From the sequence record OQ721909: a stretch of DNA of 64,000 nt; one strand, 5' to 3'. Under the pieces are notes generated by a model. That model saw only the letters and a list, made by a program, of their open reading frames with translations, was not told the origin of the DNA and searched no databases. A program made the translations under genes and the position numbers. Positions 6,397 through 10,742 of this stretch are shown here, piece by piece. Source of the stretch: Escherichia phage vB_VIPECOOM01. The stretch's first letter is position 1; each line of letters begins with the position of its first letter.

Positions 6397-6472
6397 TGGT
6401 CGAGGCAGTAGGGATCGAACCTACGACCTAGGACTTAGAAGGTCCTTGCTCTTCCTTCTGAGCTATGCCCCG
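6397..6472 (-). tRNA. tRNA-Arg (anticodon TCT)
   Basis: Hand-folded cloverleaf, anticodon loop CTTCTAA, T-loop GGTTCGATCC, CCA encoded. Confidence 0.8.
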
Positions 6473-6476
6473 TAAT

Positions 6477-6552
6477 TGGGGTGACCGATGGGAGTCGAAC
6501 CCATGACTACGAGAATCACAATCTCGAGTTCTACCAACTGAACTACGGCCAC
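6477..6552 (-). tRNA. tRNA-His (anticodon GTG)
   Basis: 76 nt cloverleaf; anticodon arm CGAGA-TTGTGAT-TCTCG; closely resembles E. coli tRNA-His from memory. Confidence 0.7.
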
Positions 6553-6666
6553 ATTAATACCTACTCCAACAATCAAGATGTCTTCACACGAAATTAAGAG
6601 AAGAGTGATCAGTTCAACCCCGATAATCGCGTCAAGTAGATATTAATGTGACAATTGTCACAAATT

Positions 6667-6741
6667 TGGCGGACGTGATAGGATTCGAACCTATAACCAA
6701 TCGCTTAACAGGCGATCGCTCTGCCATTGAGCTACACATCC
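6667..6741 (-). tRNA. tRNA-Asn (anticodon GTT)
   Basis: 75 nt; anticodon loop CTGTTAA; T-arm ATAGG-TTCGAAT-CCTAT; CCA encoded. Confidence 0.7.
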
Positions 6742-6745
6742 AAAT

Positions 6746-6832
6746 TGGTGGGGAGTGATGGAGTCGAACCACCCGAGTCGCAATGACAATGGATTTACAG
6801 TCCACACCGCTACCTCTACGGGATAACTCCCC
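6746..6832 (-). tRNA. tRNA-Tyr (anticodon GTA), long variable arm
   Basis: 87 nt; anticodon loop CTGTAAA; long extra arm; CCA encoded. Confidence 0.7.
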
Positions 6833-6845
6833 TTAATTCTTAATT

Positions 6846-6920
6846 TGGTGGCCCTGGGTGGAATTGAACCACCATCTGGCGATTATGAGTCGCTTGCTTG
6901 AACCTTCCAGCTACAGGGCC
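6846..6920 (-). tRNA. tRNA with CAT anticodon, most likely Ile (lysidine type); Met not excluded
   Basis: 75 nt; anticodon arm AGCGA-CTCATAA-TCGCC resembles E. coli tRNA-Ile2 from memory; T4 tRNA-Ile also carries CAU. Confidence 0.65.
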
Positions 6921-6929
6921 AAATTTTTC

Positions 6930-7412
6930 TTATTTTATGTAATATTTATTTAAAAACTTTCTAGCTTGAGTATGGCTAACATTTATAGCGTTTGCATAAT
7001 TTTTAATAAAACCTCGTTCATCCATATTAAAATTTTCTAATATTTTTAATCGTCTAATTATCTCATCTTGGCTTAAGGTACTTGCATTATTTTTAGAAAT
7101 TTTTTCTAAAGACTGCACTGAGTGTTTTCGACCATTAAAATTAAAATTTTTAGGTTTTGGAGGAAATCTATCATTTAGTCTCGCATCTTTTGTATTTTGA
7201 TTATTAGTTGCGCAATATATGTTATTTAATGAGTATGGTCCTTTATCACCAAAACGACACATACAGTATTCATGACCCTTTCTTCCACGCTTATCATAAT
7301 TTCCCGTTGATTTCCACCAATTCAACCACTCATCAAAAGTTAAATTCCATTCAATGTTTCTACGTATAGCAGAATTCCGCTGAGAAATATATTTTGCATA
7401 ATCTTCTTTCAT
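6930..7412 (-). mobile_element. Free-standing HNH-like (His-Me finger) homing endonuclease gene inserted between tRNA genes
   Basis: 160 aa; EWNLTFDEW plus CxC and GDKGPYSLNNIYCATNNQN motif resembling degenerate phage HNH nucleases; basic C-terminal HTH-like tail; interrupts the tRNA cluster. Confidence 0.5.
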
Positions 7413-7459
7413 CGCAAATTTCTCTACTTATTGCATACACTAAGCTAAATCAGCAAAAC

Positions 7460-7549
7460 TGGCGGAGGCGATAGGATTTGAACCTATGAGTCGCCGGAGC
7501 GACTGCCGGTTTTCAAGACCGGTGCATTAAACCACTCTGCCACGCCTCC
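7460..7549 (-). tRNA. tRNA-Ser (anticodon TGA), long variable arm
   Basis: 90 nt; anticodon arm CCGGT-CTTGAAA-ACCGG; CCA encoded. Confidence 0.8.
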
Positions 7550-7551
7550 AG

Positions 7552-7625
7552 TCTCCGCGGCAGGATTTGAACCTGCGACATTCTGCTCCCAAAGCAGACG
7601 CTCTACCAAACTGAGCTACACGGAG
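7552..7625 (-). tRNA. tRNA-Pro (anticodon TGG), CCA not encoded
   Basis: Anticodon arm TCTGC-TTTGGGA-GCAGA; abuts tRNA-Ser with 2-nt spacer, as in the T4 Pro-Ser dimeric precursor. Confidence 0.8.
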
Positions 7626-7635
7626 TAAATTAAAT

Positions 7636-7709
<74 letters not shown>

Positions 7710-7714
7710 AAATT

Positions 7715-7801
7715 TGGTGCGAGAAGTGGGACTCGAACCCACAAGGAAATCATTCCGCAGCATTTTAAGTGCTGTGCCTTTACCAATTTGACCATTCTCG
7801 C
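7715..7801 (-). tRNA. tRNA-Leu (anticodon TAA), long variable arm
   Basis: 87 nt; anticodon arm CAGCA-CTTAAAA-TGCTG; CCA encoded. Confidence 0.8.
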
Positions 7802-7802
7802 G

Positions 7803-7875
7803 CTGGGAATAAAGGACTCGAACCTTTGCATCTAGCAGTCAAAGTGCTATGCCTTACCAACTTGGCTAATTCCCA
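7803..7875 (-). tRNA. tRNA-Gln (anticodon TTG), CCA not encoded
   Basis: Anticodon arm TAGCA-CTTTGAC-TGCTA; 1-nt spacer to tRNA-Leu as in the T4 Gln-Leu dimer. Confidence 0.8.
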
Positions 7876-7944: not shown

Positions 7945-7969
7945 ATAATAACAAATAATTCTTAAAGCA
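7945..7969 (-). promoter_or_regulatory. MotA-dependent middle promoter candidate for the tRNA operon
   Basis: Minus strand TTGCTTTA (MotA box) then 12 nt then TATTAT -10. Confidence 0.45.
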
Positions 7970-8486
7970 AATTAAACATTTTAACGGTCGGCAAAACAAT
8001 TTCTTCTTCTATATAAGAGTATTTAACACTCTCAACTACACGCAAAAAATCATAATCATAATACTCAGAAGCATTACCTAAAATATTAATAAGTCCTTCA
8101 AGCACTTTATTACCATTCACAAAAAATAAGTCAAATACACGTTCTTCATCTTCTTCAGATTTATTACCAAGATCAACTTCTATGCGAAAGACCTTTTTAA
8201 TGAATTCTGGATAAAGCTGGTCTGAGAACAGTCCTTCAACCAAGTATTCATAAATAAAAAGAGATTGCTCGCTGAACAAACCATTACCGCAATAGCGCTC
8301 AATTTTAGTACTAGAATATCTGCTTTTAAATTTCTTTAAAAGATACTGAAATTGTAAGATTTCATGCTCTTCTACGCCAAACAGTGTTTTAGTTTTATAG
8401 TTGTCACCATCATTTTCCCAGGTAGTGACATCAATTACGTAACCCTGCGGAATTGTAGTACCCAAACAAATATTCATTTTCACCAC
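7962..8486 (-). CDS. Hypothetical protein
   Basis: 174 aa ORF in operon with 8480-8770 and 8773-9171; acidic, no motif recognised. Confidence 0.55.
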   Translation of the reverse strand: MVKMNICLGTTIPQGYVIDVTTWENDGDNYKTKTLFGVEEHEILQFQYLLKKFKSRYSSTKIERYCGNGLFSEQSLFIYEYLVEGLFSDQLYPEFIKKVFRIEVDLGNKSEEDEERVFDLFFVNGNKVLEGLINILGNASEYYDYDFLRVVESVKYSYIEEEIVLPTVKMFNLL

Positions 8487-8770
8487 GCTACATTAATGTA
8501 AGTATATTTAATACATTCAAGACCCAAAGGATTCTTGAAAATATCATATTCAAGAGGACCTTTTTCTGTTTCAATAAAGAAATCAAAATTTACTGTATTA
8601 AATTTACGGTCTTCCTTTACTAATTTAACTTGAGAAGATGAACGGTCAATGTAAACATTTTCAACTTCAAAACATGTTAAAATGCCATAATCATCAATCA
8701 AGGCTTTAGCCGCGTCTTGATCATATTTATATCCATTTTCAATGGATGATACTTTCGCATAAAGAATCAT
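8480..8770 (-). CDS. Hypothetical protein
   Basis: 96 aa, overlapping stops and starts with neighbours. Confidence 0.5.
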   Translation of the reverse strand: MILYAKVSSIENGYKYDQDAAKALIDDYGILTCFEVENVYIDRSSSQVKLVKEDRKFNTVNFDFFIETEKGPLEYDIFKNPLGLECIKYTYINVAW

Positions 8771-8772
8771 TA

Positions 8773-9171
8773 TCAGCCTTCATCAACAATAGTGTGAGTA
8801 TTAGCATTTACAATTTGCCACCAATCAAAGCGATTAGAATCCATCGGTTTGTTTTCATTTTCTTTGATAATGTCACGGAGTTCATCTTCAGAGAATGCTT
8901 TAGCAATTAAATCGGTATACCCACCACGGGGATAATAATTATCACCTGCAAACAAAAGGAAATTTACCTTCCCGGAAGGAACATACGCTTCCTTAGGATA
9001 CTTGTTTCCTGTGTGGTCAACCACTTCAATATAACGGTAAGGAATATCGGTTCTTTCAACCCATTGCCATGCCGCTGCAGGGGAATCGAAAGCATCTACA
9101 CCTAAACGATTATCTTCATCTTTAGACGGATTATTTTCGTAATCCGCATATACATAATATTCAACGTTCAT
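8773..9171 (-). CDS. Hypothetical protein
   Basis: 132 aa, start overlaps upstream stop (ATGA arrangement). Confidence 0.55.
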   Translation of the reverse strand: MNVEYYVYADYENNPSKDEDNRLGVDAFDSPAAAWQWVERTDIPYRYIEVVDHTGNKYPKEAYVPSGKVNFLLFAGDNYYPRGGYTDLIAKAFSEDELRDIIKENENKPMDSNRFDWWQIVNANTHTIVDEG

Positions 9172-9356
9172 TATTCACCTTTAGAAATTTTATCCATAAC
9201 GATAGCAATTAAACCAATTAAAAATGCTACTACAAGTGAAAAAACATTTTCTGCCGTAGTCAATAATCCGCATATAAATCCAACAAACATTGAAAAACTG
9301 AAAGCGGAAGCAGAAATTGCAATAGCAACATTTCGAATTAATTCACAACGTTTCAT
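9171..9356 (-). CDS. Small hydrophobic (membrane) protein; start moved to internal ATG
   Basis: Track ORF 9171-9497 would overlap the previous gene and its promoter; ATG at 9354-9356 has SD gaggagaataaaATG and follows the PeSL; 62 aa, mostly hydrophobic. Confidence 0.5.
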   Translation of the reverse strand: MKRCELIRNVAIAISASAFSFSMFVGFICGLLTTAENVFSLVVAFLIGLIAIVMDKISKGE

Positions 9357-9375
9357 TTTATTCTCCTCAGTAGTT

Positions 9376-9414
9376 GATAGGGTAATAATATCACTACCCC
9401 ATCTAAAAGTAAAC
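9376..9414 (-). promoter_or_regulatory. PeSL-type early promoter with stem-loop
   Basis: Minus GTTTAC (plus 9409-9414) directly after upstream stop, stem gatagggta/taccccatc, -10 TATTAT. Confidence 0.55.
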
Positions 9415-9648
9415 TTATTTTTTACGAAAAATTGATTTATTTTCTGCTGCCCATTTTTCAATAACTGCAGCAGGACCAGTAACAACAATTTTATCACCGT
9501 AATCTTCTGCGGCGAGTTGACCGAAATTATCTAATGCATCACGAAGAACTCCATGAGGCATTTCACCCATTTTATCTTTCTTGCCGGTGTAAATAAACTC
9601 AACTTTTACATCAGAAGATTCAGCGATAAACTCTTTGAAAGTTTTCAT
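9415..9648 (-). CDS. Internal protein I-like small protein with capsid-targeting sequence
   Basis: From second Met: MKTFKEFIAESS (CTS-like, I-A-E cleavage motif); 77 aa; position beside 57B matches T4 ipI. Confidence 0.6.
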   Translation of the reverse strand: MKTFKEFIAESSDVKVEFIYTGKKDKMGEMPHGVLRDALDNFGQLAAEDYGDKIVVTGPAAVIEKWAAENKSIFRKK

Positions 9649-9677: not shown

Positions 9678-9715
9678 ATAGGGTAATAATATCACAACTA
9701 AAACCCTATGTAAAC
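9678..9715 (-). promoter_or_regulatory. PeSL-type early promoter with stem-loop
   Basis: Minus GTTTAC (plus 9710-9715), 17-nt spacer, TATTAT -10; stem atagggt/accctat. Confidence 0.55.

Positions 9716-10057: not shown

Positions 10058-10742
<685 letters not shown>

Follow-up and report, generated by a model that had tools for sequence, protein, structure and literature searches.

An early T-even phage operon of conserved accessory genes, possibly directed against host defenses, between the internal-protein locus and the tRNA cluster

We examined a run of four open reading frames (ORFs) on the minus strand (9356 to 7962) of a 64,000-nucleotide stretch of Escherichia phage vB_VIPECOOM01 (record OQ721909), hereafter the window, whose sequence matches that of Escherichia phage vB_VIPECOOM03, a Tequatrovirus, at 100% identity. 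The run is flanked by the internal-protein locus and the tRNA cluster, and, judged by sequence, ORF1 to ORF3 are the phage T4 genes trna.4, trna.3, and trna.2. Together with a fourth gene, they form a conserved early T-even operon whose products could well be independently acting accessory or counter-defense proteins, set in an island with Acb1, the internal proteins, and the tRNAs, a reading that we hold with middling confidence. A preliminary description of this DNA had proposed a four-gene operon at this place behind a cassette at 9376 to 9414, and both the ORF positions and a promoter scan bear this out. That description is sound, but what it describes is known phage "dark matter" rather than a new system. 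The new points are the extent of the family of the fourth protein (here the WENDGD family, phrog_2290) and its hairpin, the swapping of the N-terminal half of Trna.3, the independent gain and loss of genes, and the occurrence of relatives near tRNA genes and a gene for a CCA-adding enzyme.

The T4 genes trna.4, trna.3, and trna.2 were sequenced and named decades ago. ORF1 to ORF3 share with them order, strand, and position between ipI and tRNA-Gln (identities in Table 1), but the window differs from T4 in carrying another trna.3 allele, closest to those of Dhakavirus-type phages (95%), and in carrying the fourth gene. The latter is absent from T4 but has an 86.5% identical counterpart at the same place in T2, and it occurs in 571 phage records. 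T4 retains only its last ~9 bases, which supply the MotA box for the middle promoter of the tRNAs, and because only these last few bases remain there, we conclude that T4 carries a deletion of the gene. T2 resembles the window in having trna.4, trna.2, and a 171-amino-acid ORF in this order ahead of the tRNAs, whereas the T2 record examined is without trna.3 altogether. Public names for all four are "hypothetical" or "uncharacterized protein in segB-ipI intergenic region," with UniProt giving 'Uncharacterized 6.6 / 16.0 / 11.2 kDa protein in segB-ipI intergenic region' for T4 trna.4, trna.3, and trna.2, respectively. The genes had been described as being of unknown function, which holds insofar as none belongs to a functional family; however, they are neither novel nor orphan, being T4 genes and a T2-type gene.

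The gene junctions consist of one 1-base overlap (TAATG) followed by two 2-base gaps, and the four reading frames are translationally coupled. Two protein lengths in the preliminary description needed correction. The first product has 61 amino acids (9356 to 9171) and not 62, while the figure of 174 for the last rests on an upstream GTG at 8486; its start is an ATG in all aligned homologues, and homologues and GenBank annotation alike give 171. Each of the four genes has hundreds of homologues, and the ratio of nonsynonymous to synonymous substitution rates (dN/dS) between the window and four other phages is 0.03 to 0.31. All are under purifying selection, and given these low ratios and the hundreds of homologues of each, the four ORFs are not chance occurrences.

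Table 1. Positions of the operon genes, their regulatory sites, and the tRNA cluster in the window
Feature	Position	Strand	Description or basis
trna.4 (ORF1)	9171..9356	-	61 aa; 100% identical to T4 Trna.4; phrog_1692 E = 6e-35
trna.3 (ORF2)	8773..9171	-	132 aa; 64% identical to T4 Trna.3; phrog_1411 E = 1e-55
trna.2 (ORF3)	8480..8770	-	96 aa; 95% identical to T4 Trna.2; phrog_2023 E = 9e-48
Fourth gene (ORF4)	7962..8477	-	171 aa; phrog_2290 E = 9e-68; in T2, not in T4
Early sigma-70 promoter and overlapping stem-loop (PeSL-type cassette)	9376..9414	-	promoter scan, RNA fold
Shine-Dalgarno GAGGAG of trna.4	9363..9368	-	read from sequence
MotA-box middle-promoter-like site (TGCTTTA, 12 nt, TATTAT)	7945..7969	-	pattern search
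tRNA cluster (Gln, Leu, Gly, Pro, Ser, 160-aa ORF, Met, Tyr, Asn, His, Arg)	6397..7875	-	ARAGORN

The cassette proposed to drive the operon holds a strong early promoter for the host sigma-70 RNA polymerase, embedded in a stem-loop. Its elements were located in the promoter scan as a -35 box TTTACT (9413 to 9408), a 17-nucleotide spacer with TG, and a -10 box TATTAT (9390 to 9385), and the stem-loop (9403 to 9376) has a 12-bp stem at -16.1 kcal/mol (z = -2.5). The cassette recurs at 9714 to 9686 and 10044 to 10016, ahead of both upstream internal-protein genes; the three copies have stems of 12 to 13 bp (z from -2.5 to -4.5), and the differences among them are paired changes that preserve the stem. 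With a -35 box, an extended TGn, a -10 box, an overlapping stem-loop, and repetition between genes of a plastic region, these copies have the makeup of the promoter-early stem-loop (PeSL) cassettes of T4-type phages (PMC2839356, Arbiol et al. 2010; PMC4122927, Comeau et al. 2014). PeSLs are likewise strong early promoters over stem-loops, repeated between small genes of plastic regions, where they mark the boundaries of gene replacement. Here, however, four genes share one cassette, only the internal-protein genes having one each, and gain and loss among the four fall at gene boundaries that have no cassette. Downstream of the promoter, the GGAG within the trna.4 Shine-Dalgarno sequence would be a motif of the T4 nuclease RegB, which cleaves early mRNAs within Shine-Dalgarno sequences (PMC2988021). 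At the other end of the operon, a MotA-box-like site that is ~97% conserved relative to the T4 sequence upstream of tRNA-Gln overlaps the stop codon of the fourth gene. The T4 tRNA cluster has a middle promoter directly upstream (PMC2330249), which the site in the window matches, as a putative middle promoter serving the tRNA cluster. The window holds 15 copies of the pattern TGCTTYA, 10 to 14 nucleotides, TANNNT, where 3.9 would be expected.

That the genes are early, as the preliminary description held, agrees with their T4 counterparts: trna.2 and trna.3 are recorded with early RNA and early protein and trna.4 with early RNA only, no protein class being recorded (PMC9697503 supplement). Transposon mapping in E. 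coli K-12 reports T4 trna.2, trna.3, and trna.4, as well as the Bas37 counterparts, as non-essential, with 92 to 97.5% of TA sites in the T4 genes tolerating insertions (bioRxiv 10.1101/2025.11.20.689424).

Gene content at this locus varies among natural phages. T4 carries trna.4, trna.3, and trna.2; T2 carries trna.4, trna.2, and the fourth gene; phage VR20 carries trna.4, trna.3, and the fourth gene; a further locus (L020) carries just trna.4 and trna.3; and the window carries all four. On this distribution, trna.3, trna.2, and the fourth gene appear to be gained and lost independently, while trna.4, alone among the four, was found at all the T-even-type loci examined. Because natural phages carry almost every combination of these genes, we regard them as separate accessory modules and not parts of one machine, and we reject a single four-protein complex on the same ground.

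Trna.4 has two hydrophobic helices in its hydropathy profile (approximately residues 10 to 31 and 36 to 54), joined by a five-residue TTAEN loop and flanked by charged ends, and it is most likely an inner-membrane helical hairpin with both ends predicted to be cytoplasmic. Its match to phrog_1692 spans residues 1 to 61, and its two helices and its synteny after the internal-protein locus agree with that family. The protein is found in 789 phage records, in 427 of which it is at least 99% identical, and dN/dS for its gene is 0 to 0.25. The first product had indeed been described as small and hydrophobic. The wider mention of small membrane proteins applies to Trna.4 but not to the other three, which are soluble and acidic (isoelectric point 4.4 to 4.6). 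The near identity of Trna.4 across these records also contradicts the statement that the genes occupy the most variable position of T-even genomes, a rank that belongs to the adjacent internal-protein locus.

Trna.3 is a protein of two halves. The AlphaFold2 model has two small alpha/beta domains, with a predicted local distance difference test score (pLDDT) of 85.7 and a predicted template modeling score (pTM) of 0.50. The conserved C-terminal half, carrying NFLLFAGDNYYPRGGY...FDWWQIVNA, is 70 to 91% identical across alleles, and the block NFLLFAGDNYYPxGGY...FDWWQIV that characterizes the family is invariant in the alignment. This C-terminal domain is also found alone in unrelated viral contigs. 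The N-terminal half is variable and falls into allele classes at 25 to 38%, 47 to 58%, and 85 to 98% identity, with recombinants between classes. Against the divergent classes, identity is 25 to 58% in the N-terminal half and 70 to 89% in the C-terminal half. Nucleotide identity to T4 drops from 94 to 100% in trna.4 to 58 to 60% at the start of trna.3. The window allele has 95% protein identity, a synonymous divergence (dS) of 0.63, and a dN/dS of 0.03 relative to Dhakavirus-type phages (L007/L008/L077), although the gp1 of these phages is just ~49% identical to that of the window. The comparison shows a clear case of a trna.3 allele exchanged between genera.

Trna.2 is found in 802 phage records and has a full-length match to its family over ~95 amino acids. 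A pulldown of the DRT1 defense protein enriched only two T4 proteins, Trna.2 among them, a result that the authors did not pursue (PMC13275509). In the literature, this pulldown is the sole functional mention of any of these genes. Matches of Trna.2 to TusC (E about 0.07 to 0.09) fell far short of the cutoff and were dismissed as noise. The labels PF26894 (Trna.3) and PF27001 (Trna.2) were seen as precomputed annotations on homologues.

The fourth protein is modeled confidently (pLDDT 89.7, pTM 0.83), with a beta-hairpin that bears TTWENDGDNYKT, the invariant motif, together with a helical bundle and a closing RVVES strand at the C terminus. The two family hallmarks, a (T/S)WENDGDxY(K/R)T hairpin and a C-terminal RV.E strand, are thus both present. 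A profile search of 1.8 billion representatives recovered 1019 relatives (cluster representatives), all stand-alone proteins of ~120 to 190 amino acids. Among 58 diverse members, E21, D23, and D25 are invariant, and W20, N22, G64, N65, R146, and V147 are at least 90% conserved; a Pfam scan of the same 58 returned no match. The family is essentially confined to phages, and a scan of 185,579 bacterial and archaeal genomes found it in only three metagenome-assembled contigs. The acidic hairpin looks like an EF-hand loop (E = 0.13 against a calcium sensor), a likeness that we note as resemblance only. Two relatives on uncultivated viral contigs lie inside nicotinamide adenine dinucleotide (NAD+) salvage clusters, one (L049, 2382 to 2789) with a phosphoribosyl pyrophosphate (PRPP)-synthetase-like gene and NAMPT and the other (L053, 3980 to 4411) with a SLOG/YspA gene, NMNAT-Nudix, and NAMPT. 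These gene sets resemble the tools with which phages rebuild NAD+ against depleting defenses.

The statement that none of the proteins has a recognized motif is upheld by scans of all four against Pfam, NCBIfam, and PADLOC, which gave nothing above noise and no functional family. Sequence profile searches of the PDB with four alignments produced no credible match, and the matches among viral structures were all to uncharacterized proteins. Remote homology and structure prediction, which the preliminary description had recommended, yielded no function from any family or fold match, nor did homology to T4 core housekeeping genes emerge for any of the four.

Two lines of evidence come from context, an anti-defense neighborhood and a link to tRNAs. 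Two positions upstream of the operon cassette lies 57B (10058 to 10513, minus strand), which is labeled 'RNA ligase' in GenBank and is in fact Acb1 (PF23474, E = 8e-60; 99% identical to T4), an anti-CBASS nuclease (PMC9117128). Restriction inhibitors that are injected come from the internal-protein locus; according to a 2025 preprint, they include a newly reported McrBC inhibitor of Bas37 at the same position. The nearest gene of this locus in the window encodes a 77-amino-acid internal protein (9415 to 9648, minus strand) that starts MKTFKEF and goes by the name ipVI in the annotation of phages GiZh and PST; at 234 nucleotides it has the length and position of Bas37_0260, the reported inhibitor of McrBC (type IV restriction), to which it may correspond. 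The operon resembles the T4 Acb1/internal-protein island, which lies immediately upstream on the same strand, is dispensable in the laboratory, and has the same repeated early-promoter cassettes. It differs in its products. The island encodes a 2H phosphodiesterase (Acb1) and internal proteins that bear a capsid-targeting leader and are injected; the four proteins have neither feature.

We propose that Trna.3, Trna.2, and the fourth protein most likely bind host proteins or ligands early in infection, for host-specific takeover or counter-defense. The three are small, acidic, and soluble without a catalytic signature, and a takeover or counter-defense role would match that of Acb1 and the internal proteins next to them. 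In Trna.3, it would be the variable N-terminal half that recognizes a changing partner, while the fourth protein would use its acidic hairpin to contact a universal partner, for instance a metal, a small molecule, or some conserved host protein. The host-takeover or anti-defense idea had already been raised in the preliminary description, and we find it plausible, if unproven. Several observations weigh against it. None of the four proteins has sequence or fold similarity to known anti-defense proteins (Acb1, DNA mimics, nucleotide sponges, and others). Placement in an anti-defense island is circumstantial. Trna.4 is nearly invariant, unlike an arms-race gene. Finally, none of these genes is named among the hits in the text describing T4 and Bas37 transposon screens with clinical E. 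coli and cloned defense systems, and the screen rows examined for them show no significant change (adjusted p = 1.0).

The main alternative, which we consider unlikely, is that Trna.2 and the fourth protein, perhaps even the whole operon, support the tRNA pool, through tRNA maturation, repair of the 3' end (CCA), or shielding from tRNA-cleaving defense nucleases. Every T-even-type locus examined, in several genera, has the operon and the tRNAs in this order, and a terminator scan (10700 to 7700) found no terminator-like site, and so none between operon and tRNAs; however, the tRNA cluster has its own middle promoter, and T4, T2, and VR20 each miss one operon gene but keep their tRNAs. Homologues lie inside the tRNA cluster in Klebsiella Jiaodavirus, Cronobacter S13, and Erwinia Cronus, and outside the T-even group relatives of the fourth protein lie 141 to 200 bp from a tRNA gene in Sinorhizobium phage phiM12, the T5-like Vibrio phage VspSw_1, and the jumbo Klebsiella phage K64-1. 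In the unrelated Salmonella phage PVP-SE1 (L065, 3501 to 5054), a Trna.2 homologue (41% identity) sits 10 bp upstream of a CCA-adding enzyme (PolyA_pol plus HD), with an RlaP RNA-repair-type nucleotidyltransferase ~3 kb downstream. Classical T4 genetics may also have placed tRNA-modifier loci near this region, a point to which we give no weight. More generally, the small ORFs in the tRNA clusters of T5-like, rV5-like, and jumbo phages include relatives of Trna.2 and the fourth protein, but they are equally uncharacterized, and the linkage is not universal: many members occur away from tRNAs, at 24 IMG/VR loci and in Sinorhizobium Phosso, a Zobellviridae phage, Xanthomonas BUDD, and Aeromonas AP1/CC2, while two members of the fourth family sit in the NAD+ salvage clusters instead. 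Outside the T-even group, tRNA proximity holds in ~3 of 27 lineages, by a rough estimate marginally above chance, and tRNA clusters generally gather small accessory genes and homing endonucleases. Moreover, Trna.3, Trna.2, and the fourth protein are acidic, and family scans detected no catalytic domain for tRNA processing, modification, or repair and no RNA-binding domain or nuclease motif in them. Against this reading and the counter-defense one alike, no homology gives a mechanism, and the published screens consulted report no phenotype for these genes. In its boldest form, in which Trna.2 and the WENDGD protein would be the founding members of phage-only guardians of the tRNA pool, small acidic proteins encoded alongside phage tRNA genes that sustain phage translation by blocking tRNA-cleaving host defense nucleases or aiding CCA-adding and RNA-repair enzymes, we judge the proposal improbable.

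It is also rather improbable, in our estimation, that the constant core of the locus is Trna.4, acting at the membrane as a takeover or exclusion factor (for example, by blocking entry of superinfecting DNA or by modulating host functions linked to the membrane), with the downstream genes as unrelated passengers. Its two hydrophobic helices with charged, cytoplasm-type ends, its place first behind a strong early promoter, and its presence, nearly invariant, in every T-even-type locus examined would all fit such a role. On the other hand, Trna.4 is non-essential, lacks homology to known T4 membrane proteins or other families, has no experimental phenotype, and was not detected as a protein in the T4 proteome (PMC9697503 supplement). 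A membrane role for Trna.4 is in any case compatible with an operon of independently acting accessory and counter-defense proteins. By comparison, there is next to no chance that the four are virion components, as might be supposed from a machine prediction of 'virion structural protein [STEP3]' for the 132-amino-acid protein in GenBank record OQ721911 and from the adjoining internal-protein genes, since the genes are non-essential and we reject the reading for expression that in T4 is early and not late and for the missing capsid-targeting leader, which in internal proteins ends in a Glu cleavage site, the four starting MKRCELI, MNVEYYV, MILYAKV, and MNICLGT where the two upstream internal proteins start METKMKTFKEF and MKTFKEF.

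Beyond the operon, the window phage has ten tRNAs versus eight in T4 and is missing the Ile and Thr tRNAs and segB of T4. At the T4 position of this homing endonuclease gene, between tRNA-Ser and tRNA-Met, lies a 160-amino-acid ORF (6930 to 7412, minus strand) without a Pfam match, which is 96 to 100% identical to a T2 ORF (two tblastn segments) and 38 to 47% identical to tRNA-cluster ORFs of other genera. It may be one of the T2L ORFs excluded by SegB homing (PMC2330249). Records labeled as Pseudomonas or Proteus phages (PsgM02F, vB_PSGBLB0006, and Isf-Pm2) also match the region, PsgM02F at 97.9% nucleotide identity, and their stated hosts look doubtful.

About half of the T4-type gene set is still without a function, these four genes included, and every characterized neighbor, namely Acb1, IPI, the newly reported McrBC inhibitor, and the phage tRNAs, is an immune-evasion factor. 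The most useful leads are a possible binding of Trna.2 to DRT1, the acidic hairpin that is invariant in the family of the fourth protein, the swapping of N-terminal domains in Trna.3, and the neighborhoods with tRNA genes and CCA enzymes. If any of the four were given a function, it would hold for hundreds of coliphages used in therapy or as models, and one for the fourth protein would extend to ~1,000 sequence clusters of phage proteins from many hosts.

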